Positions 5,272 through 41,341 of a DNA stretch of 64,000 nucleotides are shown in pieces. The stretch is taken from NCBI GenBank assembly GCA_041666845.1, contig JBAYGC010000007.1, forward strand, positions 6,080 to 70,079, read 5' to 3'. Numbering within the stretch: position 1 is the first letter of the stretch; every line of letters starts with the position of its first letter. Made by a program: the position numbers and the translations under genes. Source of the DNA: Patescibacteria group bacterium. Lineage in GTDB: Bacteria > Patescibacteriota > Patescibacteriia > UM-FILTER-42-10. Under the pieces are notes generated by a model. The model did not search any database, was not told where the DNA came from, and was given only the letters and a program-made list of their open reading frames with translations.

Positions 5272-5679
5272 GTGGCCAACGATAGAGAGAAACGACACGC
5301 CTTTGAATTCCTTGTACACTGCCTCATCGGGGACGTTGCGCATGCCAAGGTGTTGCATGCACTAATTGACGCCGGGTCAGTCTCTTATGAAGAGCTGGGG
5401 ATTACCCCGGATGACATGGCAGTATTCCAGGCCCTATCCTGTATTGCAGACCCCAAGGAGCGTGCCCTATCGGCACTCCGCGGTTGTCGTGAAGGCAAGG
5501 TCCTCGCCAACTTCGGCGTGATTCAGTATCTATTCCGTTCCCGCCAAGTCCAACTGGCCGACCTGCAAGAGGGCGACAACGGCATCCTCAAAGTCGGCTC
5601 CGATCTGAGTCATTTTCACAAAGCACACACAGCACACCTCACCAGAATTCTTCCCCAGGAAGACCCTGCGCAAGACTAG
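5272..5679 (+). CDS. Hypothetical protein (island 2, gene A), 135 aa, GC-rich, His-rich C-terminus
   Basis: GTG start 5272 with SD GGAAGGAG (5258-5265); about 58% GC; no family recognised; no competing minus-strand ORF. Confidence 0.45.
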   Translation: MANDREKRHAFEFLVHCLIGDVAHAKVLHALIDAGSVSYEELGITPDDMAVFQALSCIADPKERALSALRGCREGKVLANFGVIQYLFRSRQVQLADLQEGDNGILKVGSDLSHFHKAHTAHLTRILPQEDPAQD

Positions 5680-11053: not shown

Positions 11054-11274
11054 GGGAAATACATTAACAATTTGTTCAAGTTATCAAGAGTGATTCAGAT
11101 CCCGCCAATGCGGGAATATGCAGGACCGGCCTGCTAAAAACTGGATCCAGCAACCCTCTCCAAGGAGGAATGGGTGCTAACTCCGGCCCTATGCGGGGAA
11201 GATGATAGAAGTAAGATGCTTTCCTTAGGGAAAGTTTTTGTTTTGACTGCACCACTCCAACCGGGAGGGACCTC
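11054..11274 (+). promoter_or_regulatory. Structured 5' leader of island 3: hairpins, SD+GTG uORF start, terminator-like hairpin with U-tract
   Basis: hairpins CCCGCcaatGCGGG (11101-11114) and GCAGGaccggCCTGC (11120-11134); SD AAGGAGG 11162-11168 + GTG 11174; hairpin CTTTCC ttag GGAAAG (11219-11234) followed by TTTTTGTTTTG (11235-11245). Confidence 0.4.
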
Positions 11275-11622
11275 GTGGCTAACCCAACCAGTAATCAGGT
11301 CTTCCACGTCCTGTGCCGTCGAGCCGGGAAGATCGGCTACTATTCCCACGGTCATCCGCTGTGCAACCTGATTCTGGGACGTGAAGTATTCCTCTGCGAA
11401 CGCCATTACACCCCCAGCGGTTGGATCACGCGAATAGTCTGCGTTCCGCCGGAGGACATCCTCAACTACGTCGGTGAAGAAGACGCTCGAGTGATCCGAT
11501 CGAAATTCCCAACCTTCTCTGATCAGTTCACCATCAACGGTGACAACTACCCACAGCCGGAAGGGTTCGGTCCTCCTGTGAGGATCGAGCTGGAGCTGGA
11601 GCCTGCACCGCGGGCAAAGTAA
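11275..11622 (+). CDS. Hypothetical Cys/His-rich protein (island 3, gene A), 115 aa
   Basis: GTG 11275 with SD GGGAGGG (11263-11269, 5-nt spacer); about 57% GC; no family recognised. Confidence 0.45.
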   Translation: MANPTSNQVFHVLCRRAGKIGYYSHGHPLCNLILGREVFLCERHYTPSGWITRIVCVPPEDILNYVGEEDARVIRSKFPTFSDQFTINGDNYPQPEGFGPPVRIELELEPAPRAK

Positions 11623-11632
11623 GGAGCAGGTC

Positions 11633-11833
11633 ATGTCGCTGCGCGATGGACTCACACTTGCTGAGGCGACTGTTCGCCAACAGCACCTGGATCAGGCACA
11701 TCAAACAACTTCCCTTGCCGAAGACGAGCGCATCGTCCGGAGAGCAATTGCCCAGTACGAAGCAGGCGACGACACTCCGGTAGCCCGGGTAATCTCCAAA
11801 TGGATCGCCAGCCGCACGGCGCAATCGTTCTAA
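11633..11833 (+). CDS. Hypothetical small protein (island 3, gene B), 66 aa
   Basis: ATG 11633 with SD AAGGAG (11621-11626, 6-nt spacer); 10 nt after gene A stop (translationally coupled arrangement); followed by terminator. Confidence 0.45.
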   Translation: MSLRDGLTLAEATVRQQHLDQAHQTTSLAEDERIVRRAIAQYEAGDDTPVARVISKWIASRTAQSF

Positions 11834-11853
11834 TCGTACATTCACCCAATTCG

Positions 11854-11893
11854 AAAGGACCATGGTTCCCCACGGTCCTTTTTTTATTTTTAC
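11854..11893 (+). terminator. Intrinsic terminator of island 3
   Basis: AAAGGACCATGG ttcc CCACGGTCCTT stem (1 mismatch) followed by TTTTTTTATTTTT. Confidence 0.6.
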
Positions 11894-11901
11894 AACCTAT
11901 T

Positions 11902-13917
11902 CTAGATAAGCAGGCCAACAATCAGTAATGCAACCACATTAATTACTTTAATCATCGGGTTGATCGCCGGACCGGCAGTATCTTTATACGGATCACCGAC
12001 TGTGTCGCCAGTTACCGCCGCCTGATGAGCCGGGGAATTTTTCCCGCCATAATGCCCGTCTTCAATATATTTCTTGGCATTGTCCCAGGCCGCTCCACCC
12101 GCTGTCATTGAAAGTGCCACAAAGACACCGGTGATGATCGAACCGATCAACATTCCGCCTAGTGCATCGATCCCCAATAAAAATCCAACGGCAATTGGTG
12201 CAACAACCGGGATTGCTGCTGGAAAGATCATTTCTTTCAATGCCGCTTTAGTAACAATATCAACTGCTTTACCGTATTCCGGTTTGGCAGTACCTTCCAT
12301 AATTCCTTTTATTTCACGAAACTGTCTGCGCACTTCTTCAACGACACTGGTTGCCGCACGACCAACTGAGCGCATCGCAACTGAACCGAATAAATATGGC
12401 AGAGAACCGCCGATGAATAAGCCGATCAGAACATTATGGTTGCTCAAAGCAAACTGAGCATCAATTCCTTTATCCATAATTTCCTGCACGTATGATGCAA
12501 ACAATACCATCGCGGCCAGACCAGCTGAGGCGATTGCATATCCTTTGGTTACTGCTTTGGTTGTATTACCAACAGAATCCAGTGGATCAGTAACAGCTCT
12601 TACCGATTCCGGCATGTCGGACATTTCAGCAATCCCGCCCGCGTTATCAGTAATCGGACCGAAAGAATCGATTGCGACAATAATTCCCGTTAGAGAAAGC
12701 ATGGCCATAGTTGCAATGGAAATCCCGTATAAACCAAGATCATAATCTCCCAGCAACATATAGCTGGCCAGTATTCCACCGACAATCACCAGCACCGGTA
12801 GGAAGGTAGATTCCATGCTCACTGATATTCCTGTAATAATATTTGTCCCATGCCCGCCCTCTGATGATTTGGCAATACTTTGGACCGGACGATGTTCTTT
12901 CGATGTATAGTATTCTGTAATTACCACAATCAATCCGGTAATCACCAAACCAATTAGACTGGCGTAGAATATACTCATAGCATAAGGTTTGTCACCGAAC
13001 GCATTATCAGTTGCAAAGTAGAAAAGGACAGCCGCGACCAGACCGCTGACAATTATTCCCTTGTACAAAGCACCCATGATGTTCGGTTTGTTGTTATTTA
13101 ACCGGACAAAGAAACTGCCGATAACCGAAGCAATAATCGCCAGCCCACCTAAAATCAAAGGAAATTCAACCGCTGTCTGTTGTAATACATTGTCGCTCTT
13201 GAATATTAGTGAACCCAGTAACATTGCGGCAATCGTTGAAACCGCATATGTCTCAAACAAGTCCGCTGCCATGCCGGCACAGTCACCGACGTTGTCACCG
13301 ACATTGTCCGCAATCACAGCTGGGTTACGTGGATCATCCTCCGGGATACCTGCTTCAACTTTTCCAACCAAGTCCGCTCCAACGTCCGCGCCCTTGGTGA
13401 AAATACCACCACCCAGGCGGGCAAACACTGAGATCAGCGATCCTCCCAAGCCCAATCCAACTAGCGCTTTAAGATCTGAAGTAATAAAATAAAAACCGGC
13501 GACAGATAATAAACCGAGACCAACCACCATGAATCCGGTTACTGCACCACCCTGGAAAGCAATATCAAAAGCTTTTTTAATTCCAGATCTAGCCGCTTCT
13601 GCTGTTCGTACATTAGTGCGTACTGAAACATTCATACCAATATATCCGGCAAGTGCTGAACTGATTGCACCAATCAGAAATCCGAAAGCGGTCAGTTTGC
13701 CAAGCGCGAACCAAAGGATTACGAAAAGAATCACAGCAACAATTGCTACTGTCTTGTATTCCCGCTTAATGAAAGCGGCGGAACCCTCGCGGATAGCCCG
13801 GGCGATATCTTTTTGTTTACCTTCACCCTCTGGTTTTTTCATTATCGAAATAATAAGGAAAATACCATAAGCAAGCGCGATCAGCGCTGCTACGATAGAC
13901 CAATGCACAAGTCTCAT
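11902..13917 (-). CDS. hppA: Membrane-bound proton/sodium-translocating pyrophosphatase (H+-PPase)
   Basis: 671 aa polytopic; signature [19 protein letters not shown] and [21 protein letters not shown]. Confidence 0.95.
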
Positions 13918-13975: not shown

Positions 13976-15274
13976 TTATTTATCTTTTTTATCCTCTTTT
14001 TTTGCTGATGCCTTTTTCTTGGTTGTCTTTTTCCCCGGCTTATCTTCCGTTTCTTTTACTTCTTCTTTAACCTCAACTTCAGATGTTTCTGACTTTTCTT
14101 CCTTAATCTCATTCTTGGCTTTATTTTTTTCCTCTACTGTCTCGCCTTCTTTAATAATATCAATTTTTAATCCGGTCAATTTTGCTGAGAGGCGGACATT
14201 TTGACCGCTCTTACCAATGGCCAAAGATAGCTGGTCTTCTTTTACTTCAGCAATCGCTCTGCCTTCTTTTTCATCCAGTTTAACGCTGATAACTTTCGCC
14301 GGGGAAAGAGAGTTGATGATAAATTTAATCGGATCTTCGTCATATTCAATAATATCAATTTTTTCTCCGCCCAGTTCTGCAATAATTGTCTGCACGCGGG
14401 TTCCACGCTGGCCGACACACGAACCAACCGGATCAATGTTTGATTCTTTTGAAATGACAGCGATTTTTGTCCGGGAACCGGCTTCGCGAGCGACTGCTTT
14501 TATATCGATCGAGCCATTGGCAATTTCCGGTACTTCCATCGTAAATAGTTTCTTGACCATTTCCGGGTGGGAACGCGACACAACAATCTCCGGACCCTTG
14601 GTTGTCTTTTTGACTGAAACAATATATACCTTGATTCTTTGACCGGAATTGTAATGTTCCTGGTCAATTTGTTCTTGGGGTGGCATCACAGCCGTGGTCT
14701 GCCCGATATCGACTAAAACAACTCTGCCTTCGACTCTCTGAATGGTCGCATTGATAATTTCGCCTTCCCGATTTTTATAATCATTATAGACAACATCCCG
14801 TTCCGCTTCGCGTAGTTTTTGAATGATTACCTGTTTAGCGGTTTGTGCCGCCATTCTGCCGTAAGCTTCTGAAGGAAATTTTTCAGTTCTAATCTCATCA
14901 CCGATTGAGACATCCTTTTTCAATTCCCTTGCTGCCGAAATCATAATGTCAGTTTTAGGATTGAAAAGTTCTACTCTTTCCTCATCAGTCAGTTCTCTGT
15001 TTTCTTCTTTAGCTTTCTCGCGCTTTTCCTTTTCTTCCTCCTTTGCTTTTTCTATTTCTTCTTCCGTCATATCCTCTACAACTGTTTTCACGTCAAAGAC
15101 GCGTGACCCTGCCGTCTCGAGATTGAATTCAACCTTAATATTTTCATCCTTTTCGCCGAAATCTTTCCGGTAAGCCACAGCTAATGCAGCTTCAATTGTT
15201 TCGATAACCGAACTCTCCGAAATATTTTTCTCGTCGCAAATTTGTTTTATCGCTTTTTGAATTTCTGATGACAT
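13976..15274 (-). CDS. nusA: Transcription termination/antitermination factor NusA with Lys/Glu-rich C-terminal tail
   Basis: 432 aa; N-terminal RNAP-binding domain, S1 and two KH regions; basic/acidic C-terminal extension. Confidence 0.9.
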   Translation of the reverse strand: MSSEIQKAIKQICDEKNISESSVIETIEAALAVAYRKDFGEKDENIKVEFNLETAGSRVFDVKTVVEDMTEEEIEKAKEEEKEKREKAKEENRELTDEERVELFNPKTDIMISAARELKKDVSIGDEIRTEKFPSEAYGRMAAQTAKQVIIQKLREAERDVVYNDYKNREGEIINATIQRVEGRVVLVDIGQTTAVMPPQEQIDQEHYNSGQRIKVYIVSVKKTTKGPEIVVSRSHPEMVKKLFTMEVPEIANGSIDIKAVAREAGSRTKIAVISKESNIDPVGSCVGQRGTRVQTIIAELGGEKIDIIEYDEDPIKFIINSLSPAKVISVKLDEKEGRAIAEVKEDQLSLAIGKSGQNVRLSAKLTGLKIDIIKEGETVEEKNKAKNEIKEEKSETSEVEVKEEVKETEDKPGKKTTKKKASAKKEDKKDK

Positions 15275-15361
15275 ATCTTTTATTGTTAAACATAAATAAA
15301 ACTAGTCTTCATAACGAACACTAGTCAAGACAAGTATAGCAAAGAGATAAAATAATGCAAG

Positions 15362-15396
15362 TTATATAAAAAAAGCTATCTTGTGAGAGATAGCTA
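15362..15396 (-). terminator. Intrinsic terminator of prs (minus strand)
   Basis: AGCTATCT tgtgag AGATAGCT stem (15374-15395) overlapping stop codon, followed on minus strand by TTTTTTTATATAA. Confidence 0.55.
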
Positions 15397-16377
15397 GCGC
15401 TGTTCAAAGCAGATGTCCGAGACTGAGGTCTCGGTGGTAATCGCCTCGATTGCCGGGGCGAAAACATCTGCAAAAGAGCAAACCTTGATCTTCGAGCCGG
15501 GACCCGCCTTCGTGCCAACGGGGATAGTATCCCCCACCACTAGCGACTTCAGGCAGGAGCGTTCGATCTTACCTACGGCATCCCCGGAGAACACCGGATG
15601 TGCCGCGATCCCGTAAACCACTCTGGCACCAGCGTCCAGTAGTGCCTCCGCAGCGCCGATTATTGAGCCGGCGCCGTCCACCATGTCGTCCAGAACGATG
15701 CAGATGCATCCCTTCGGATCGCCGTAGATCTCGTTGACCCGGGACTGCCCGTGCCCGCTACGCTCCTTGTCGATGATTACGACACGATCTCCCGGGAAAC
15801 GGAACTTGCGGTAGTTGCGGACCATTTTGCCGCCGTTGACATCCGAGGACACTAGGGCTAGCGGCGTATCCGGGCCGTACTCTTCCCGTTCGCTCAACAC
15901 GATCCGCTTGATCTCCGGCACCATTACCGGATACATGTACAGGTGGTCACAGGGGATGTTGAAGAACCCCTGGATCTGCGCGGCGTGCAGTTCTGCCGTA
16001 ACCACCCGGCTGGCACCGGCCGTGGCCAGCAGGTCAGCGACTAGTCTGGCAGTAATCGGTACCCGCCCTTCCTTCTTGCGGTCCTGGCGCGCGCAGCCGA
16101 AATACGGCATAACGGCCGTAACAGCGGCGGCTGAAGCCCGTTTGGCAGCATCAATCATCACAAGCAACTGCATCAGGTTGTCGGCCGGCGAGTAAGTGGA
16201 CTGGATGATGAAAACGTGCCGGCCGCGCACATTCGCATTCAGCTGAGCAAACGGTTCCCCGTCAGCAAACGGAGTGGTCTTGGCCGAGCTCAAGGGAACA
16301 CCCAGTTTGGACGCGATCGCCTGAGCCAGCTCAGGGCACGATCCACCGGAAAACAGGACGATTCTGGAGAGATCCAT
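15394..16377 (-). CDS. prs: Ribose-phosphate pyrophosphokinase (PRPP synthetase), about 60% GC
   Basis: motifs FADGE, YFGCARQDRK, ELHAAQIQGFF, DDMVDGAGS; likely ATG at 16375-16377 with SD GAGGAGG (track ORF begins at upstream GTG 16386); strongly GC-rich relative to neighbours. Confidence 0.85.
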   Translation of the reverse strand: MDLSRIVLFSGGSCPELAQAIASKLGVPLSSAKTTPFADGEPFAQLNANVRGRHVFIIQSTYSPADNLMQLLVMIDAAKRASAAAVTAVMPYFGCARQDRKKEGRVPITARLVADLLATAGASRVVTAELHAAQIQGFFNIPCDHLYMYPVMVPEIKRIVLSEREEYGPDTPLALVSSDVNGGKMVRNYRKFRFPGDRVVIIDKERSGHGQSRVNEIYGDPKGCICIVLDDMVDGAGSIIGAAEALLDAGARVVYGIAAHPVFSGDAVGKIERSCLKSLVVGDTIPVGTKAGPGSKIKVCSFADVFAPAIEAITTETSVSDICFEQR

Positions 16378-16462
16378 CGCCGCCACCTCCTCACAGGCAA
16401 GTTACAGGGTTTCGGGTTGTCAAAGTATATTACCTTAACATGACCGTTAGGAGAATTCAAGT

Positions 16463-16497
16463 AAATAAAACAACCCTACATTTCGTAGGGTTGTTTT
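16463..16497 (-). terminator. Bidirectional-type intrinsic terminator after surface-protein gene
   Basis: 13-bp perfect stem AAAACAACCCTAC atttc GTAGGGTTGTTTT with T/A runs on both sides. Confidence 0.6.
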
Positions 16498-16505
16498 ATT
16501 ACCTT

Positions 16506-17636
16506 CTATTTACTAGGAGGGGGAGGGGGCATATTATTACCACCTTCACTTTTTTCCGAATTCTCTTTATGTAGCAAGGTTTGTTGTCCCGAATGATCGG
16601 AAGGTTTATTTTCCAATCCGCCCAATTTCTCAAGACCCTTCAAACCTCCTTGGTCACTTTTACCACCGCGACCGCGAAGATTCACAGCAATTATGATTAT
16701 GATAATCGCCAGGATCACCCACCATACCAGTGCAGACTGACTTTCTTCAGAGTCAGCATTTTCGTCAGTGTCTTTGTTGGTGTTTTCATCCGTTAATGTT
16801 ATTTCAGTCTCAGTATTCTCCGCATCCGCAGGATTATTCTCACCTACTGCCTCAAGTAGAGTATCGCCGACCGCCACCGGGGTATCACTTACTCCCAGTA
16901 CCTTTGGGTCAGTGTATCCCTCCGTTGATGTTTCGGATGCCTCAACAAAGAATCCAACAACATTTGAAAAACTGCTTTCCTTCCCCTCGGGGCTGACTGT
17001 AGTAACATACACCAGATGTTTTTCCTCTGGGTTAAGATCCAGAAACGGCTGGTAGGCGAAACTGGCAATGCCAGATTCATCATTCTTCACTTTGAATTGA
17101 CCGTTGAATTCTTTATCAATAAAGACCTTAATCAACGAATCATTTACCGCCAATCCGGTAATAAACGGTTTTGTCGATACCGTCTTATTATTTACAACTG
17201 GCTGAAACAAAGTAGGAGCCGGATAAGGTTCTTCAATTACGAATGACGTCTCTTTTGACATCAGACTTTTTAATTTAGAATCCTTATCTATTGCTGATAC
17301 AGCTACCGTATGTTCGCCGGATTTGAGTGATAAAAACGGAACAAATGTAAAACTGGCAGTTCCCTTCTTACCGTCCAAAACCTTTGCCATGCCGTTGAGC
17401 TGGCCATCAATATATACTTCGACCTTGGTGCTGTTTTCTGTGAGTCCGGTAATTACCGGCTGCTCATAGATAGTGGAATCTCCGATTGCCGGCCAGATCA
17501 ACGTTGGTGTTGATACGGTCGGGTTAGCTGCCAGTAAACTTTGTGGAACAACCAATAGGGTTATTACACATACTGACACGAAGAATCCGAAGACCTTGCT
17601 TAAAGAGGATCGATTTGTATGATCTAACATATTCAT
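16506..17636 (-). CDS. Cell-surface protein with two tandem Ig-like repeats, acidic linker, C-terminal TM anchor and Pro-rich tail
   Basis: 376 aa; N-terminal signal/TM (FGFFVSVCVITLLVV); internal repeat around PTLIWP...KVEVYIDGQLNG...GEHTVAVSAID vs PTLFQP...KVFIDKEFNG...; hydrophobic WWVILAIIIIIIAV near C-terminus; ends PPPPPSK. Confidence 0.5.
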   Translation of the reverse strand: MNMLDHTNRSSLSKVFGFFVSVCVITLLVVPQSLLAANPTVSTPTLIWPAIGDSTIYEQPVITGLTENSTKVEVYIDGQLNGMAKVLDGKKGTASFTFVPFLSLKSGEHTVAVSAIDKDSKLKSLMSKETSFVIEEPYPAPTLFQPVVNNKTVSTKPFITGLAVNDSLIKVFIDKEFNGQFKVKNDESGIASFAYQPFLDLNPEEKHLVYVTTVSPEGKESSFSNVVGFFVEASETSTEGYTDPKVLGVSDTPVAVGDTLLEAVGENNPADAENTETEITLTDENTNKDTDENADSEESQSALVWWVILAIIIIIIAVNLRGRGGKSDQGGLKGLEKLGGLENKPSDHSGQQTLLHKENSEKSEGGNNMPPPPPSK

Positions 17637-24229: not shown

Positions 24230-24305
24230 TGGTGGAGATGAGGGGACTCGAACCCCTAACCCCTTCCATGCCATGGAAGTGCTCTACCAATTGAGCCACA
24301 TCCCC
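24230..24305 (-). tRNA. tRNA-Ala (anticodon GGC)
   Basis: cloverleaf readable on minus strand: acceptor GGGGATG/CATCTCC with G3:U70 Ala identity pair, anticodon loop AUGGCAU, T-loop GGTTCGAGTCC, encoded CCA. Confidence 0.85.
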
Positions 24306-24583
24306 GTATATACTCCAGTATTTCTCTACGTCTATCCAATTCAGAGTAATCAAATTATATTATGCTTAACACAATATGTCTAGACGATGATACTTATACT
24401 ATTTATATTCCCGACTATTTATAATATTCATCTGATTCTTAAAGTAATACTTCGATTTGTGATTAGTATTGTTTACCCATATATCACTAGAATTTGTATT
24501 GCATCAAACAATAATATATTTACATTCGTCATGAATTACATTAATCCTGATATTGATTGTCACTACTAAACATTGAATAAAAG

Positions 24584-24609
24584 ATAAATGTTCCACGTGG
24601 AACATTTAT
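24584..24609. repeat. Perfect 26-bp palindrome ATAAATGTTCCACGTGGAACATTTAT (CACGTG core), candidate operator
   Basis: read directly; self-complementary; upstream of tRNA-Ala(GGC). Confidence 0.7.
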
Positions 24610-24666
24610 TCATATCTATATAAGAATGGGGAATTTATTCAAGTATTTTTAACATTGATCCGTGTC

Positions 24667-24740
24667 TGGTGGAGATACTGGGAATCGAACCCAGGCCTCA
24701 GCAATGCGAATGCTGCGTAATGCCTCTTTACTATATCCCC
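24667..24740 (-). tRNA. tRNA-Ala (anticodon CGC)
   Basis: acceptor GGGGATA/TATCTCC with G3:U70; anticodon stem CAGCA/TGCTG, loop UUCGCAU; T-arm CTGGG TTCGATT CCCAG; CCA encoded. Confidence 0.8.
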
Positions 24741-24799
24741 AGCAAACATGGATCAATATTTGGCGTCTAATTAAACTATAGAAACAATATAATATACAG

Positions 24800-24874
24800 T
24801 GGTGCCCCCGGCAGGAATCGAACCTACATTTAAAGCTTAGGAGTCTCTCGTTCTATCCATTGAACTACGGGGGC
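24800..24874 (-). tRNA. tRNA-Arg (anticodon CCU)
   Basis: acceptor GCCCCCG/CGGGGGC, D-arm GTTC AATGGAT(A) GAAC, anticodon loop CUCCUAA (U33, A37), T-loop TTCGATT, CCA encoded; one A-G mismatch at base of anticodon stem. Confidence 0.7.
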
Positions 24875-27699: not shown

Positions 27700-29067
27700 A
27701 TGACAAAGGAGCAGTTGTGGCAGGCGGTCTTAGGGGAGTTAGAACTATCGCTGAGTAAAGCCAACTTTACCACTTGGTTTAATAATACCTTTGTTTCAGA
27801 GTTTGAAGATAATGTAGTAGTAATTGCCGTCCCGAATACTTTCACAAAGACATGGTTTGAAAATAAATATCATGGGGCTATTGCCCAGGCTTTGCAAAAT
27901 GTAACAGATGGTGGGGTTAAAGAAGTGACTTATAAGGTAGAGTCTTCTAAGAACCCCAAGAATGGCATGATTGCTAAAACCCAAACCACAGAAGCAGATC
28001 GAAAGGTTGACTCACTGAAGAAGAAAGATTCTGCAGAAGCAAATAATGGATTAAACCCCTTATATACTTTTGAGAATTTTGTCGTCGGCAAAGGAAATGA
28101 TCTGGCGAAAGCTGCTTGTATCGCAACCGCGGAAAAACCAGGGATTATTTATAATCCTCTTTTCATTTACGGTGGTGTTGGGCTGGGTAAGACCCATTTA
28201 CTACAGGCGGTTGGGCATCGCACTATGGAAGTTTATAATAACAAAAAGGTTGTTTATGTCACGTGCGAGAGTTTCACTAATGATTTTATTCAAGCGGTTA
28301 GTAACGGCCGGACAGAAAAATTTAAAGATTTTTATCGTTCTGTCGATGTTCTTTTGATTGATGACATCCAGTTTCTAGCCACTAAAGAAAGAACCCAAGA
28401 AGAGTTTTTTCATACCTTCAATGCCTTACATCAAGCCAGAAAACAAATTGTGATCAGTTCTGACCGCCCACCAAAAGCAATCCCAGCTCTTGAGAAAAGG
28501 CTGATTTCCCGCTTTGAATGGGGGATGATTGCTGACATCTCCAGCCCGGATCTTGAAACCAGAACCGCAATTCTAGAAACCAAGTGCCGGGAAAAGGGCT
28601 ACGAATTGAGTAATGAAATTCTTTCTTCTATCGCCGCCTCCGTTCACAATAACGTTCGTGAGCTTGAGGGGGCTTTAAACCGCATCATTGCCCACCATCA
28701 ATTGAATAACAGCGTACCTACACTAGAATCAACAAGAGAAGTGTTGTCCGCACTAGCTAACACGCCACGAAAAGGCGCTTTAACCCCAAAACAAGTTATT
28801 TCTACGGTTGCGGAATTTTATGAAATTAGCATTAAAGACTTGACCGGGGAAAGTAGAAAAAAAGAACTGGTGGTCCCCAGACAGATCTCTATGTTTTTAA
28901 TGAGAGAAGAAATAAAGACCTCCTACCCGAGTATTGGGCAAGAGGTTGGTGGCAGAGACCACACAACAGCAATGCATGCATACATGAAAATTACCAAAGA
29001 AGTTGAAGAAAATGAAAAAATCAAACAAGAAATTGATCTGATTCTTCAAAGGCTTTATAATAATTAA
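27700..29067 (+). CDS. dnaA: Chromosomal replication initiator protein DnaA
   Basis: 455 aa; AAA+ Walker A GGVGLGKTHLL, sensor/arginine finger region, C-terminal DNA-binding HTH. Confidence 0.95.
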   Translation: MTKEQLWQAVLGELELSLSKANFTTWFNNTFVSEFEDNVVVIAVPNTFTKTWFENKYHGAIAQALQNVTDGGVKEVTYKVESSKNPKNGMIAKTQTTEADRKVDSLKKKDSAEANNGLNPLYTFENFVVGKGNDLAKAACIATAEKPGIIYNPLFIYGGVGLGKTHLLQAVGHRTMEVYNNKKVVYVTCESFTNDFIQAVSNGRTEKFKDFYRSVDVLLIDDIQFLATKERTQEEFFHTFNALHQARKQIVISSDRPPKAIPALEKRLISRFEWGMIADISSPDLETRTAILETKCREKGYELSNEILSSIAASVHNNVRELEGALNRIIAHHQLNNSVPTLESTREVLSALANTPRKGALTPKQVISTVAEFYEISIKDLTGESRKKELVVPRQISMFLMREEIKTSYPSIGQEVGGRDHTTAMHAYMKITKEVEENEKIKQEIDLILQRLYNN

Positions 29068-29278: not shown

Positions 29279-30385
29279 ATGAAACTATATTGTACTCAGG
29301 AGAATTTAAACAGGGGATTAAATATTGTCAGTCATCTTGCAGGTAAAAATACCACCTTGCCAATACTTGATAATATTTTAGTGAGTATTGAAAATGGAGT
29401 AATTCAACTTTCCACCACAAATTTGGAAATGGGGATCAGTTGTAAAATAAGAGGCAAGGTTGAAAGCGAAGGGAAAACAACTATCCCGGCGAAACTGTTT
29501 GCTGATTATGTCAGTCTTTTACCAAACGAAAAAATTTATATAGAAGAAACAGAAAAAAAGATTTATATCAGTTGCACAGATCAAGAGACGACAATTCAAG
29601 GGATGTCGGCGGAAGATTATCCACTGATCCCGTCTTTAGAAAAAAAGAATAAAATTGTAATCAAAGCCGAGGACTTAAAAAATGTAGTTAGGGAAACACT
29701 GTTCGCGGCGGCCTATGATGAAACTAGACCGGAAATCAGCGGAGTATTAGTCAAAATAGAGGGTAATAAAGCAAGGTTTGTTGCCACAGACAGTTACCGG
29801 TTGGCTGAAAAAACAATAATTATTGACGCAAAAGAGGTGGGAGATGTGGAAAGTATCTTACCTTCCAGAACACTACAAGAGTTGGTTAGGATTGTCGGGA
29901 TGTCTCAGGTAGAAGAAATAGAGATGTATATAGCAGAGAATCAGGTGTTGTTTTGTCTTGATGACGTTGAAATTATTTCCCGGGCAATTGAGGGTAATTA
30001 CCCGGATTACCAGCAGATAATTCCAAAAGATAAAAAAACCGCAGTGCTTGCCAATAAAGAAGACCTGTTGAAAGTAATAAAAACAACCAGCTTGTTTTCC
30101 AAGAGCGGAATTAATGATGTAAATCTAAAAGTCGTTACGGAAAATAAAGAATTGATTGTGTCAGCAATTAATTCACAGTTGGGTGAAAACATATCGAGAA
30201 TGAAAGTGGAGATTGAAGGCGAAGATAACCAGATAGTTTTCAATCATCGTTACCTTCTGGACGGATTGCAAAGTATTAATTCCGAAAGAGTATCGCTGGA
30301 AATAATTAATAATACCAATCCAGGGGTAGTTAGGCCGGAAAATGACGAAAATTATGTCTATATAATTATGCCGATAAAGCAGTAG
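29279..30385 (+). CDS. dnaN: DNA polymerase III beta sliding clamp
   Basis: 368 aa; three-domain clamp, N-terminal LNRGLNIVSH...TLPIL. Confidence 0.9.
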   Translation: MKLYCTQENLNRGLNIVSHLAGKNTTLPILDNILVSIENGVIQLSTTNLEMGISCKIRGKVESEGKTTIPAKLFADYVSLLPNEKIYIEETEKKIYISCTDQETTIQGMSAEDYPLIPSLEKKNKIVIKAEDLKNVVRETLFAAAYDETRPEISGVLVKIEGNKARFVATDSYRLAEKTIIIDAKEVGDVESILPSRTLQELVRIVGMSQVEEIEMYIAENQVLFCLDDVEIISRAIEGNYPDYQQIIPKDKKTAVLANKEDLLKVIKTTSLFSKSGINDVNLKVVTENKELIVSAINSQLGENISRMKVEIEGEDNQIVFNHRYLLDGLQSINSERVSLEIINNTNPGVVRPENDENYVYIIMPIKQ

Positions 30386-36992: not shown

Positions 36993-37790
36993 TTATTTTT
37001 TTGGATAAATTACGATCATCACCCTGCGTCCGTTGGCTGGGTCGCCGTTGTTCCAGTCATGAGTAGCATTGATCAAAACATCCGGATCGTAGACATAATC
37101 GTGCCCTTTGCGGGTGCCGGGGTCATTGGTAATAATCTGGGTTTCTGTCCAACCTTTGACCACCAGTGCATGATAGAGCGGCCCTGGCTGTTTAAAGTTC
37201 GGATTGCCAAGCTCGCGTCCCGCGGAGAGCAGGATCACCGGTCTTCCTTGGGTAACTTGTTGTTTAATGTCATTTATTGTGATGTCATAAATTACATCCA
37301 CTTTATTGTAATGATAAAAATCTTTGATCAGCTGTGCGGTTTCTTCCGCAGAAGTGCTCTTATAATCCCCATATTGTAAGTTTTCAAAATCAACCAGCGC
37401 AAGCAGTTCATTGTCCGCGGTTTGAGCGTCTTCAAATGGCTTGTTTTCATAAAAACGATGCACCATTAAAAGTGCTGCCTCCTCACAAGTGTCTTCATGA
37501 ATTTCGTCCCAATTCGAAAGTGGCGCCTGTGAAGTGAAGGGAACATCCAGATTTAATGTGGTAGGAATGCTAGTCGAGATATTTGTATTAGTTGGATTTG
37601 CATTGATGTTTGCGGTATTGGTGTTTTGATTTGAATTTGCATTTGCCGAGATATCATTGTATGAAACTGCGTCAGGCACCGGTTCTTGGAACTGTTTTTT
37701 GACCCAATCAGAAACCGGCACGCGGTACCAGTAAAGTACGGCGAGTAATACAGTGGTGATAGTTATGCTGATGAATATTTTTTTCTTCAT
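36993..37790 (-). CDS. Membrane-anchored secreted protein with C-terminal C39-like (papain-fold) peptidase domain
   Basis: 265 aa; N-terminal TM; low-complexity Asn/Thr linker; DTCEEAALLMV catalytic-Cys-like motif, downstream His/Asn-Asp. Confidence 0.45.
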   Translation of the reverse strand: MKKKIFISITITTVLLAVLYWYRVPVSDWVKKQFQEPVPDAVSYNDISANANSNQNTNTANINANPTNTNISTSIPTTLNLDVPFTSQAPLSNWDEIHEDTCEEAALLMVHRFYENKPFEDAQTADNELLALVDFENLQYGDYKSTSAEETAQLIKDFYHYNKVDVIYDITINDIKQQVTQGRPVILLSAGRELGNPNFKQPGPLYHALVVKGWTETQIITNDPGTRKGHDYVYDPDVLINATHDWNNGDPANGRRVMIVIYPKK

Positions 37791-39400: not shown

Positions 39401-41341
39401 TTAACGGACAACGACCCCGGCATTACCGAAGATGCCCCAGTCCTGTTCGAAGCGGGCTTTGGACCAATAGATTTGTCCGGCATAGGTGTCGTTTAAAATA
39501 ATCTGGGTTGGGTTATCTTTGCTGCCGACATAACCGATGACGGTGCGGGCGTGTTCCCCCTTCCAGGCATAAATATATTTTCCGGCAGGAGTGTGCCAAG
39601 AATCTTCATAACCGGAGCCGTAAACTCCCCACACAACTACCGCATTACCCTTGCTGATTTCTTCCGTAATTTGTGTCACATCCCAGCCGGTGAAGGCCTC
39701 AGAGGGGCGCCAATGGTTGGCCGCTCGGGCGATTGGGTCCCAATAGACTCCGTAGCCGGTTGAGTTCTGCCTGCCACGAATATCGCCGACAAAAGCCTCA
39801 TAAGGATCACCCCATATCGCACCGGAGTGTGACGTAGGGTCGTAACCGACATAAGTCATAATATCACTCTCTGAAACAGAAACACTCTTGCCTGCCAGAG
39901 CCATTTTTAAAGCGGCAGCCTCGCATGATAAGGGTAAATCCTGCAGGTCGCTTGCAATGGCAAGCTTCACTACTTCTGGTTCTGTTGTGAAAGAATATGA
40001 CAAATCTTTTGTCAGATCGAGTCCGTGAACACTTACAATGCCACTTTGGATATTTAAATGATAGTTTGTATTATATTGAAGGGAATTTACCGGTTGAATG
40101 TTTACTGTATTTCCTTCCCAGCGGAAAGTTAATAGAACGCTTGGTTCAAGTGTAATATGTGCCTCGGCGGATACATGGTCCACTTCCTGATCAAATGCAA
40201 TTTGAAGACCGCTGTTTACTCCTACACCGGTAGCGCCGTCGTGCGGTGAAATACGAGAGACTTTAATTTCACCGATGGTTGTAAATTTATATGAAACGGG
40301 TTCTTCAAGATAGCCACCACCTTGAGTTTTTGTATTGGCATTAATTAGTACGTTGTATTCAGTCCCATAAGCCAATTTTTTAGCGGGAGTGACAGTGGCA
40401 ACCATACCATTTTCGGAAAGTGTGATAGTAGGTTTGATATCGGGTTTGACTGATAAATTTGCACGTAAGGATTCCACATCCATTGCCTTAGTGAATGTAA
40501 TCGAAATTGGCGCGTCAATAAAAACCGCTTTCCCGGTTGGTGTCGATTCAGCAATCAGAGGTGGCGCGATTGTTTTAAAAGCGCCTTCATATACTTTCTT
40601 CGGGTCACTTCTGTGGACAACTTCGCGGGTCGTAGTATCACGTGAGACGCCGACACGGTATATAGTTAAATTGTATTTTGCTGACTGCTGTAGCGGTTCA
40701 GTCGGGGTGAGTGTGTAGAGATCATTTGTCTCATTAATTGTTTCTTCAACGGTAATTTCCGGATCAAAGACGAATTCAAACTCAGCAATAGCAGGGTTTG
40801 GTTCATTCAGTTTAATGGTGATGGGGGTGGCCGGCGAAATATCTTGTGAATGTATTTTGGGTACTACCGCCAAAACATCCGGTAGGGGGCTGGTTGTAAA
40901 TAAAAAAGCGGACGAGCTCGTTTTCCCGATTGGTAGCGGGCTTTGTATTTGATTAATATTAACCTGATACTTTGTCTCTGCTAGGAGTGTATGGTTTGGC
41001 ACAAATCGGATGCGCCGGAATAGCTGCTGGTTGAATAACGGTGCCTCGAAATGCCATTCACCTTCTATGTCAGGTGAAATAGATACCGAAAGTGCTCGCC
41101 GATCTACGGGACGACTGAAGTTAATTACAATTGGCGTCTCCAGTTCTACGTTTTCGGTGGTCTGCGGACTAATCTGTGTAATTGTTGGAGTAAATATAAA
41201 GTTTCTTGCCAGGATAATAAAAAGTACCAGCCCGCCGGCTAGTACCCCTAAAATAATGATTGCCCGTGTACGCAAAAAACTTAGATATTTTTTATTAACT
41301 ATGACTTTTTTCGCTTTATCCTCGGTAAAATTTTGCAGCAT
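39401..41341 (-). CDS. Large secreted multi-Ig-like-domain protein with C-terminal C39-like peptidase domain
   Basis: 646 aa; N-terminal TM; repeated beta-rich segments; C-terminal SCEAAALKMAL...H...ND motifs homologous to 36993-37790 product; overlaps GalT-like gene by 26 nt. Confidence 0.45.
   Translation of the reverse strand: MLQNFTEDKAKKVIVNKKYLSFLRTRAIIILGVLAGGLVLFIILARNFIFTPTITQISPQTTENVELETPIVINFSRPVDRRALSVSISPDIEGEWHFEAPLFNQQLFRRIRFVPNHTLLAETKYQVNINQIQSPLPIGKTSSSAFLFTTSPLPDVLAVVPKIHSQDISPATPITIKLNEPNPAIAEFEFVFDPEITVEETINETNDLYTLTPTEPLQQSAKYNLTIYRVGVSRDTTTREVVHRSDPKKVYEGAFKTIAPPLIAESTPTGKAVFIDAPISITFTKAMDVESLRANLSVKPDIKPTITLSENGMVATVTPAKKLAYGTEYNVLINANTKTQGGGYLEEPVSYKFTTIGEIKVSRISPHDGATGVGVNSGLQIAFDQEVDHVSAEAHITLEPSVLLTFRWEGNTVNIQPVNSLQYNTNYHLNIQSGIVSVHGLDLTKDLSYSFTTEPEVVKLAIASDLQDLPLSCEAAALKMALAGKSVSVSESDIMTYVGYDPTSHSGAIWGDPYEAFVGDIRGRQNSTGYGVYWDPIARAANHWRPSEAFTGWDVTQITEEISKGNAVVVWGVYGSGYEDSWHTPAGKYIYAWKGEHARTVIGYVGSKDNPTQIILNDTYAGQIYWSKARFEQDWGIFGNAGVVVR

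Follow-up and report, generated by a model that had tools for sequence, protein, structure and literature searches.

A class I-type PRPP synthase gene before nusA in a Kerfeldbacteria-like patescibacterium and its probable displacement in situ of a divergent resident homologue

Phosphoribosyl pyrophosphate (PRPP) is the entry point to nucleotide, nicotinamide adenine dinucleotide (NAD) and histidine/tryptophan chemistry. The Patescibacteria are thought to depend on salvage, and the PRPP synthase carried by such a bacterium, together with the provenance of that enzyme, therefore bears on the independence of the host. The replacement of a gene by a distant homologue in the same position, known as xenologous gene displacement in situ, was reportedly described by Omelchenko, Koonin and co-workers in 2003. 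Horizontal acquisition in Patescibacteria, or candidate phyla radiation (CPR) bacteria, covers nucleotide-metabolism genes (PMC12455944), and the patchy distribution of PRPP synthase among CPR lineages has been treated as a trait (PMC7304191). Here, the PRPP synthase gene prs has been analysed in a 64-kb stretch of contig JBAYGC010000007.1 from a Patescibacteria group bacterium; this whole stretch is referred to as the window. As stated in an initial annotation made from the sequence, prs lies directly upstream of nusA; both genes are on the same strand. It is probably a working class I-type PRPP synthase gene (type A) which, as a xenologue, displaced a resident divergent form (type B) in situ.

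The initial annotation had described a complete Prs on the basis of its motifs, and FADGE, PYFGCARQDRK, ELHAAQIQGFF and DDMVDGAGS are all present in the protein, which is encoded on the minus strand. The open reading frame (ORF) extends over 15394..16386. The GTG at 16386, listed as a start by the ORF finder, overlaps the ribosome-binding site and is an unlikely alternative; the ATG at 16377-16375 is taken as the real start codon because of the GGAGG found 8 nt upstream and the N-termini of the type A orthologues, which open with MDLSR or MNDLSR. The product is 100% identical to an NCBI/JGI/ENA protein named ribose-phosphate diphosphokinase (“Patescibacteria group bacterium”). The Pfam domains Pribosyltran_N (PF13793, 6.6e-45, residues 9-124), Pribosyl_synth (PF14572, 1.2e-18) and PF00156 (3.8e-06) have been identified, and the NCBIfam models PRK01259 and TIGR01251 are matched with 343.8 bits (cut-off 297) and 274.9 bits (cut-off 113), respectively; none of the lineage-specific NCBIfam equivalog models reaches its cut-off. 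The best matches of solved structure (6NFE, 7XMU and 4S2U) are the Prs enzymes of Legionella and E. coli (E about 1e-74 to 1e-76) and of Burkholderia, followed at lower rank by human, Thermus, B. subtilis and mycobacterial Prs.

The genomic setting has been compared through a NusA scan, with one genome per species, which returned 64 loci, almost all from the Kerfeld-/Uhr-/Falkow-/Magasanikbacteria group, that is, the class ABY1. The loci closest to the window are L012 (JBAYGW010000022; NusA 96%, Prs 92%) and L013, a Candidatus Kerfeldbacteria metagenome-assembled genome (NusA 74%), and the host is an ABY1-class, Kerfeldbacteria-like Patescibacterium. Type A occupies the position before nusA, here called the “prs slot” of this bacterial family, in at least five related species: L012, which is nearly conspecific, and L001, L002, L007 and L005. 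The gene order gdh-rnhB-methyltransferase-UPF0102-hyp-prs-nusA-H+-translocating pyrophosphatase is conserved in L001, L002-4, L007/8 and L005/6, all contigs of other samples, whose same-slot Prs proteins are 61-78% identical to that of the window. The gene is not patchily distributed: all sampled window-group members have it, as does L012. The ratio of nonsynonymous to synonymous divergence (dN/dS) is 0.05-0.12 in every orthologue pair, so prs is under purifying selection, and its protein evolves somewhat faster than those of nusA, gdh and rnhB.

A different Prs is found in the same slot of L013. Between the same upstream gene and nusA, this genome carries a 337-aa Prs-like ORF (L013:6649-7662) that is 26% identical to the window protein, scores 123.8 bits with TIGR01251 (cut-off 113) and retains recognisable FGDGE, RRQD, ELH, K-x-R and DD motifs. 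This type B forms a small clade of its own (P0235-P0240). The gene immediately preceding nusA in L076, L077 and L078 is likewise of type B, with a GC content at third codon positions (GC3) equal to that of the flanks. In a set of 1.84 billion representative proteins, none beyond the type B cluster is more than 32% identical to it. One divergent Prs of type B grade was found in a CPR-like context, which gives at most a hint that divergent Prs forms are the norm in this phylum. The MurJ gene of the window lies between the genes for two Peptidase_C39_2-like proteins (36993-37790 and 39401-41341, minus strand), one of which is fused to Ig-like domains; a protein resembling them (L079:2703-3515) is the neighbour of a divergent Prs on an unrelated CPR-like contig.

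The boundaries of the exchange can be read from L005 (type A) and L013 (type B). Their DNA is 91.5% identical over 2.9 kb upstream, a stretch that stops about 24 nt short of the start codon, and the match resumes 51-126 nt after the stop codon, while the identity of the two Prs proteins is about 25%. Each gene type comes with its own ribosome-binding site, coding sequence (CDS) and terminator hairpin, and the promoter-like block and the nusA leader are common to all loci. In the intergenic alignment, GAGGAGGT at the Shine-Dalgarno site is kept among the window-group orthologues and differs in L005/L013. In the window, the terminator hairpin (15395-15374, with a T-run) overlaps the stop codon; it is conserved in all nusA-adjacent type A loci, a different hairpin being present in the type B locus L013; the statement of the initial annotation that prs has a Shine-Dalgarno sequence and a terminator of its own is thus borne out. 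The promoter-like block contains an invariant TTGA...TG.TAAG.TAATA.AC.TT in all seven aligned loci, L013 included, and scores under the threshold of a consensus scan. As loci of either gene type have it, the block is part of the resident slot rather than of the cassette. The nusA leader block, of putative promoter function, is conserved alike in the alignment of both types. The exchanged unit is accordingly a one-gene cassette placed under a putative resident promoter.

Outside the Kerfeldbacteria-like clade, the site is empty: no prs was found within 8 kb of nusA in the scanned loci, 13 remoter ABY1 loci have UPF0102 within 320 nt of nusA, and elsewhere unrelated genes precede nusA. The initial annotation had placed prs in the position of rimP, which precedes nusA in none of the examined loci, relatives having UPF0102/YraN or unrelated genes instead. 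It had also suggested that a capability was gained; since relatives hold a divergent Prs in exactly that slot, the event was a replacement. Its proposal of horizontal acquisition or foreign insertion stands as far as the Gram-negative affinity of the protein (up to 49% identity) and the empty site of the 13 ABY1 loci are concerned, and fails in that the gene is neither recent nor mobile. At L065:7303-7863, between the Ig-repeat gene and nusA, a 186-aa predicted membrane protein (GC about 0.52 vs 0.40) is encoded and prs is absent, which indicates that the site accepts different inserts.

In a neighbour-joining tree of the NusA N-terminus (about 170 columns), the window group, all of type A, has as its sister a pair formed by L013 (type B) and L005 (type A). 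L065 is the next branch, followed outwards by the type B hosts L076/L077 and then by the prs-less ABY1 genomes. This order is most simply read as an older state with type B before nusA, in which type A later took the place of type B. Under this scheme prs would form a small transcription unit, flanked by the upstream gene's terminator on one side and the nusA promoter on the other, and be transcribed from the resident promoter with a ribosome-binding site and a terminator of its own. Type B, probably the older occupant, would have given way to type A through homologous recombination within the conserved flanking DNA, at a time preceding the divergence of the window lineage from at least three other sampled species. 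The same kind of exchange seems to have been repeated, separately and recently, in L005, as judged from the near-identical L013.

As regards the origin of type A, its eight sequences are monophyletic (100/100) on a long stem inside the Gram-negative class I Prs. The named neighbours, at 44-49% identity, comprise Bdellovibrionota, Myxococcota, other “Deltaproteobacteria” and Alphaproteobacteria, as well as Ignavibacteria, Bacteroidota, Nitrospiria and Melainabacteria. Their ranking shifts with the GC content of the query, Bdellovibrionota/Myxococcota coming first for a GC-rich query and Ignavibacteria for an AT-richer one. The phylogeny proposed by the initial annotation as a check on foreign origin thus places type A among Gram-negative enzymes, with no stable sister and with no ordinary patescibacterial Prs in the tree.

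At four-fold degenerate sites, the GC values (GC4) for prs and its flanks are 0.70 and 0.48-0.51 in the window, 0.68-0.70 and 0.51-0.53 in L012, 0.45 and 0.21-0.25 in L001, 0.54 and 0.29-0.31 in L007, and 0.52 and 0.26-0.37 in L002. The excess is therefore near +0.2 in all five lineages, while host composition varies by a factor of two; the deepest type A genes, L005 and L009, show no excess (GC4 about 0.45). The window-group genes also have elevated GC1 and GC2 and a larger share of Gly/Ala/Arg/Pro. The refuting condition set by the initial annotation, similar GC in the orthologues of relatives, gives a mixed picture: four relatives share the excess, and the most divergent type A genes, L005 and L009, lack it. 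Between the window and L001, the correlation of G/C-versus-A/T states at four-fold sites is 0.04 for the flanks (95% interval -0.03 to 0.11) and 0.06 for prs, so that synonymous sites are saturated over this distance. According to a two-state model, a donor signature would have decayed to one third or less since the window-L001 split, which would call for an ancestral excess of 0.68 or more (point estimate above 1), a value that reaches or exceeds the possible maximum. Two further approaches were rejected. Polarising the window/L012 substitutions with L001/L007 as outgroups gave similar AT>GC and GC>AT counts, a comparison that is powerless since the outgroups are saturated at synonymous sites and was not used against amelioration. 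Four-fold conditional state counts with L001+L002 as “ancestor” were set aside, as they cannot separate retention from convergence.

The high GC is inherited with the gene and seems to be actively maintained, rather than to be a fading donor signature. Either prs is kept GC-rich, perhaps through selection on composition or GC-biased gene conversion, or it is re-imported from an unsampled GC-rich pool. A bolder proposal, which we regard as possible although rather doubtful, is that the excess is a gene-specific equilibrium in several AT-rich Patescibacteria and not a donor leftover, in a Prs subfamily with a remodelled substrate loop and allosteric region. Candidate causes would be GC-biased gene conversion at a frequently recombining slot and selection on the composition of the gene. 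In that case, episymbiotic bacteria would be exchanging alternative PRPP synthases at the prs-nusA slot, a natural hot spot of recombination.

Several points weigh against the displacement of type B by type A, and some of them would suit the reverse history, in which type A is native and vertically inherited, type B is the invader and the high GC developed within the lineage by a process acting on this gene, such as GC-biased conversion in a slot prone to recombination or codon selection. Three come from composition: the deepest type A genes are host-like in GC, the same excess recurs in five lineages of differing host GC, and with state correlations of only 0.04-0.06 a donor signature should be gone. 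Moreover, (i) no donor was found in word-based searches of 5.8 billion proteins and in cluster look-ups, the nearest outside protein being at most 49% identical; (ii) with the tree holding no ordinary patescibacterial Prs, the term “foreign” rests on the Gram-negative affinity and the comparison with type B; (iii) the direction of replacement is uncertain, given the size and method of the host tree; (iv) the type A gene of L009 sits in another genomic context; (v) the genome may hold a second native prs elsewhere, the check suggested by the initial annotation having found none with type A or B queries in the 64-kb window; and (vi) the loop substitution T235G and five further changes at near-invariant positions, considered below, leave some doubt about normal activity or regulation. 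A native type A would also agree with a slot that demonstrably recombines and with the lack of close type B relatives outside its own cluster. Nevertheless, this history is considered unlikely: the outermost hosts, L076/L077, carry type B in the slot with fully host-like composition, type A is closest to Gram-negative class I enzymes whereas a Prs of type B grade occurs in at least one other CPR-like context, and the raised GC1, GC2 and Gly/Ala/Arg/Pro share fit a long residence in a GC-rich genome equally well. Displacement of type B by type A is therefore preferred.

The protein itself departs from the class I pattern, as established by alignment with 201 class I Prs outgroups, in which 61 columns are near-invariant (at least 97% conserved). 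All eight type A sequences have the residues H131, K204, R206, D230, D231, D234 and R97-Q98-D99, which correspond to the catalytic set known from B. subtilis and E. coli Prs, namely the His of (D/E)LH, the K-x-R loop, the DD pair with a further Asp, and RQD. As these essential residues are intact, the gene is expected to encode a PRPP synthase converting ribose 5-phosphate and ATP to PRPP and AMP. The window protein deviates at 6 of the 61 near-invariant columns (Y95C, P178S, G181N, R205E, L322I and F323C). Throughout the type A clade, SPDxGG is replaced by S(S/A/T)D(V/I)N(G/S)G (SSDVNGG in the window), the middle Arg of KRR is lost (KER in the window), about nine residues are inserted between the two domains, and the C-terminal SVSxLF becomes SVSD(I/V)CFE, with LF changed to CFE(x)R. 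The SVSxLF motif contributes to the allosteric site of known Prs enzymes. The ribose-5-phosphate loop, D-T-(A/G)-G-T in the class I enzymes, reads D-G-A-G-S, with both substitutions invariant within type A. Gly235 occurs in none of the 201 outgroups (Thr in 187, Ser in 14) and Ser238 in ten, so the deviation of DDMVDGAGS noted in the initial annotation is real.

Such changes could mean that type A is a Prs-derived enzyme with altered chemistry or regulation, acting on another phosphoribosyl substrate or having lost allosteric control, and no ordinary PRPP synthase. The clade-wide changes at near-invariant positions (SPDxGG, R205 and the C-terminal LF), the two loop substitutions and the interdomain insertion would agree with this, as would a nonsynonymous divergence (dN) of 0.12-0.19 for Prs compared with 0.05-0.11 for its neighbours. 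We consider this a very unlikely alternative, however, in view of the complete set of residues known to be catalytically essential, the score above the curated cut-off of the Prs subfamily, and the fact that type A is apparently the sole Prs homologue recovered from these assemblies. The DGAGS loop could bind phosphate through backbone contacts, and catalysis is predicted to be normal despite the odd loop; substrate affinity or regulation is perhaps altered. Type A, found so far in a few Patescibacteria contigs only, is a new member, possibly a distinct subfamily, of the well-known Prs family.

In the window, the prs CDS has a GC content of 0.60 (GC1/2/3 = 0.62/0.46/0.72). The check on GC3 suggested by the initial annotation shows it to be an outlier at z = 4.3 against 59 other ORFs, with mean 0.411, sd 0.073 and a maximum of 0.60. 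Measured in 200-nt windows, GC climbs from 0.30 to 0.57-0.635 and drops again, the boundaries lying near 15400 and 16400, that is, at the ends of the CDS, and the intergenic DNA on both sides has 30-38% GC. The claim of a GC content far above that of the host genes thus stands with the qualification that prs is the strongest outlier among several GC-rich patches. The patches at 2198-2906, 5272-5679 and 11134-11863 reach 0.50-0.58. The first two are flanked by conserved genes (metallo-beta-lactamase-fold/Mur-ligase genes and AP endonuclease 2/trigger factor, respectively), and the ORFs of these patches gave no Pfam or PHROGs match. The third (core about 11245-11830, GC 0.55-0.58) lies between the H+-translocating pyrophosphatase and CarS-like genes, with small ORFs on both strands; its core is present in L012 at 83% identity and absent from L001/L002, where the edges alone align, and the patch is therefore a lineage-specific insertion. 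Two causes of the high GC of prs were rejected: codon bias through high expression, of which the window gives no sign, trigger factor and glutamate dehydrogenase having GC3 of only 0.44-0.46, and a gene overlapping prs or antisense to it, since the window-group members share no conserved ORF in another frame. A tRNA cluster reading GC-rich codons, Ala(GGC), Ala(CGC) and Arg(CCT), is located at 24230-24874 on the minus strand.

The sharp GC step at the CDS ends, the Shine-Dalgarno sequence and terminator belonging to prs, and the other GC-rich patches of the window and L012, one of them lineage-specific, would be expected if a GC-rich island had recently entered this genome and added a missing capability. 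The prs gene is not such a recent or mobile island, a possibility to which we assign a very low probability. The same slot is occupied in five related species, relatives already have a Prs there, and independent arrival of near-identical cassettes is excluded by protein identities of 57-80%. A comparison of the window with L012 gives identities at third codon positions of 0.69 (prs) and 0.67 (nusA), and a synonymous divergence (dS) of 0.59 for prs as against 0.69-0.89 for its neighbours, with which prs has therefore travelled. No integrase, transposase or other mobility gene was found within 10 kb on either side of prs, and no tRNA adjoins it, the nearest being 8 kb away. The sole flanking repeat, an imperfect AT-rich 20-nt direct repeat (80% identity; 15293-15312 and 16462-16481), is unconvincing: both copies lie within regulatory blocks conserved across both types, and it is probably a chance feature rather than a target-site duplication.

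An assembly chimera or contamination of the bin by a GC-rich fragment, which an abrupt 1-kb GC step might suggest, can be dismissed, as the prs-nusA locus is found in identical or orthologous arrangement in independent assemblies (ENA, JGI, NCBI and Logan) from several samples and species and the flanking regulatory blocks are continuous with the gene.

The features of the locus are collected in Table 1. The Ig-repeat gene accompanies prs only in the Kerfeldbacteria-like clade, with orthologues in L001, L002, L005, L007, L013 and L065. Among L001/L002/L007, its dS is 0.39-0.48, compared with more than 1 for the neighbours, and its dN/dS is higher (about 0.15), which suggests recent exchange or a sweep of this gene among the three. 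On the other side of nusA, the H+-translocating pyrophosphatase gene (11902-13917, minus strand) encodes a protein 51-52% identical to its positional counterpart in L001/L002 (dN about 0.41), and identity rises to 62-67% with the enzymes of many more distant ABY1 genomes and to 98% with that of L012; the gene looks like a second gene-type replacement, adjoining the prs slot. Further along the window, at 27.7-30.4 kb, dnaA (27700-29067, plus strand) and dnaN (29279-30385, plus strand) lie at the minimum of the cumulative GC skew, where the skew turns and gene orientation flips, and the replication origin is probably at about 27.3-27.7 kb. Given these positions, prs belongs to the core chromosome, about 11 kb from the origin, and is co-directional with replication.

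Table 1. Features of the prs-nusA locus in the window and further type B copies in related loci.
Feature	Position	Strand	Remarks
prs CDS, type A, class I-like ribose-phosphate diphosphokinase	15394..16377	minus	327 aa; stop included
Shine-Dalgarno sequence GGAGG	16386..16390	minus	read from sequence; 8 nt before ATG; within swapped cassette
Intrinsic-terminator-like hairpin and T-run	15366..15395	minus	AGCTATCT-CTCACA-AGATAGCT; overlaps prs stop codon
Promoter-like block: TTGAAT, 17 nt, TAAGGT, then AATATAC	16420..16460	minus	putative promoter
Terminator-like palindrome ending the upstream gene	16464..16500	minus	left edge of prs slot; comparable hairpin in relatives
nusA leader, promoter-like: TTGCAT, 16 nt, TATACT, then TTGACTAGTGTTC	15290..15360	minus	right edge of prs slot
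nusA	13976..15274	minus	Pfam NusA_N, KH_5, S1; 119 nt downstream of prs; anchors conserved prs-nusA linkage
Membrane-anchored 376-aa protein with Ig-like repeats	16506..17636	minus	upstream neighbour; weak Big_13 match; not assigned to a family
Type B prs, further copies	L076:8996-10009; L077:1513-2529; L078:1401-2492		slot before nusA

The exchange of prs illustrates a known evolutionary process, and its points of interest are the persistent GC excess and the cassette-like manner of exchange. The locus shows that lineages can exchange a central enzyme of a streamlined genome in cassette form without any change to the regulatory context around it, and two Prs versions sharing 26% identity can coexist within one bacterial family. 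The locus is also a natural test case of compositional amelioration, with a constant GC excess while host compositions drifted widely, and models that date transfers by GC would misread this prs.

Compared to the class I Prs enzymes (E. coli, Legionella and B. subtilis; EC 2.7.6.1), type A has the same two-domain build, a similar length (about 315-330 aa) and the same catalytic residues, and many Gram-negative members are 47-49% identical to the window protein. It differs from them in DGAGS, SSDVNGG, KER, the changed C-terminus, the interdomain insertion and the long stem branch. Type B shares with type A the slot before nusA and the domain pair. It is, however, only 22-26% identical to the window protein and to class I Prs, deviates at 30-37 of the 61 near-invariant class I columns and has its best equivalog-level similarity to the archaeal-type PRK00934, far under the cut-off. 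As in the surveys of horizontal acquisition in CPR bacteria, a foreign-type gene of nucleotide metabolism is seen in a streamlined genome. The surveys recognise recent transfers from their similarity to the donor, whereas here the event is old, the donor undetectable and the composition has not converged with that of the host. With xenologous displacement in situ, the locus shares distant homologues (26%) in one position, conserved flanks, clean boundaries and closely related genomes. In contrast to the classic cases, which lie inside operons, the exchanged unit is a single-gene cassette with a ribosome-binding site and terminator of its own under a resident promoter, and both versions of prs persist across the bacterial family.

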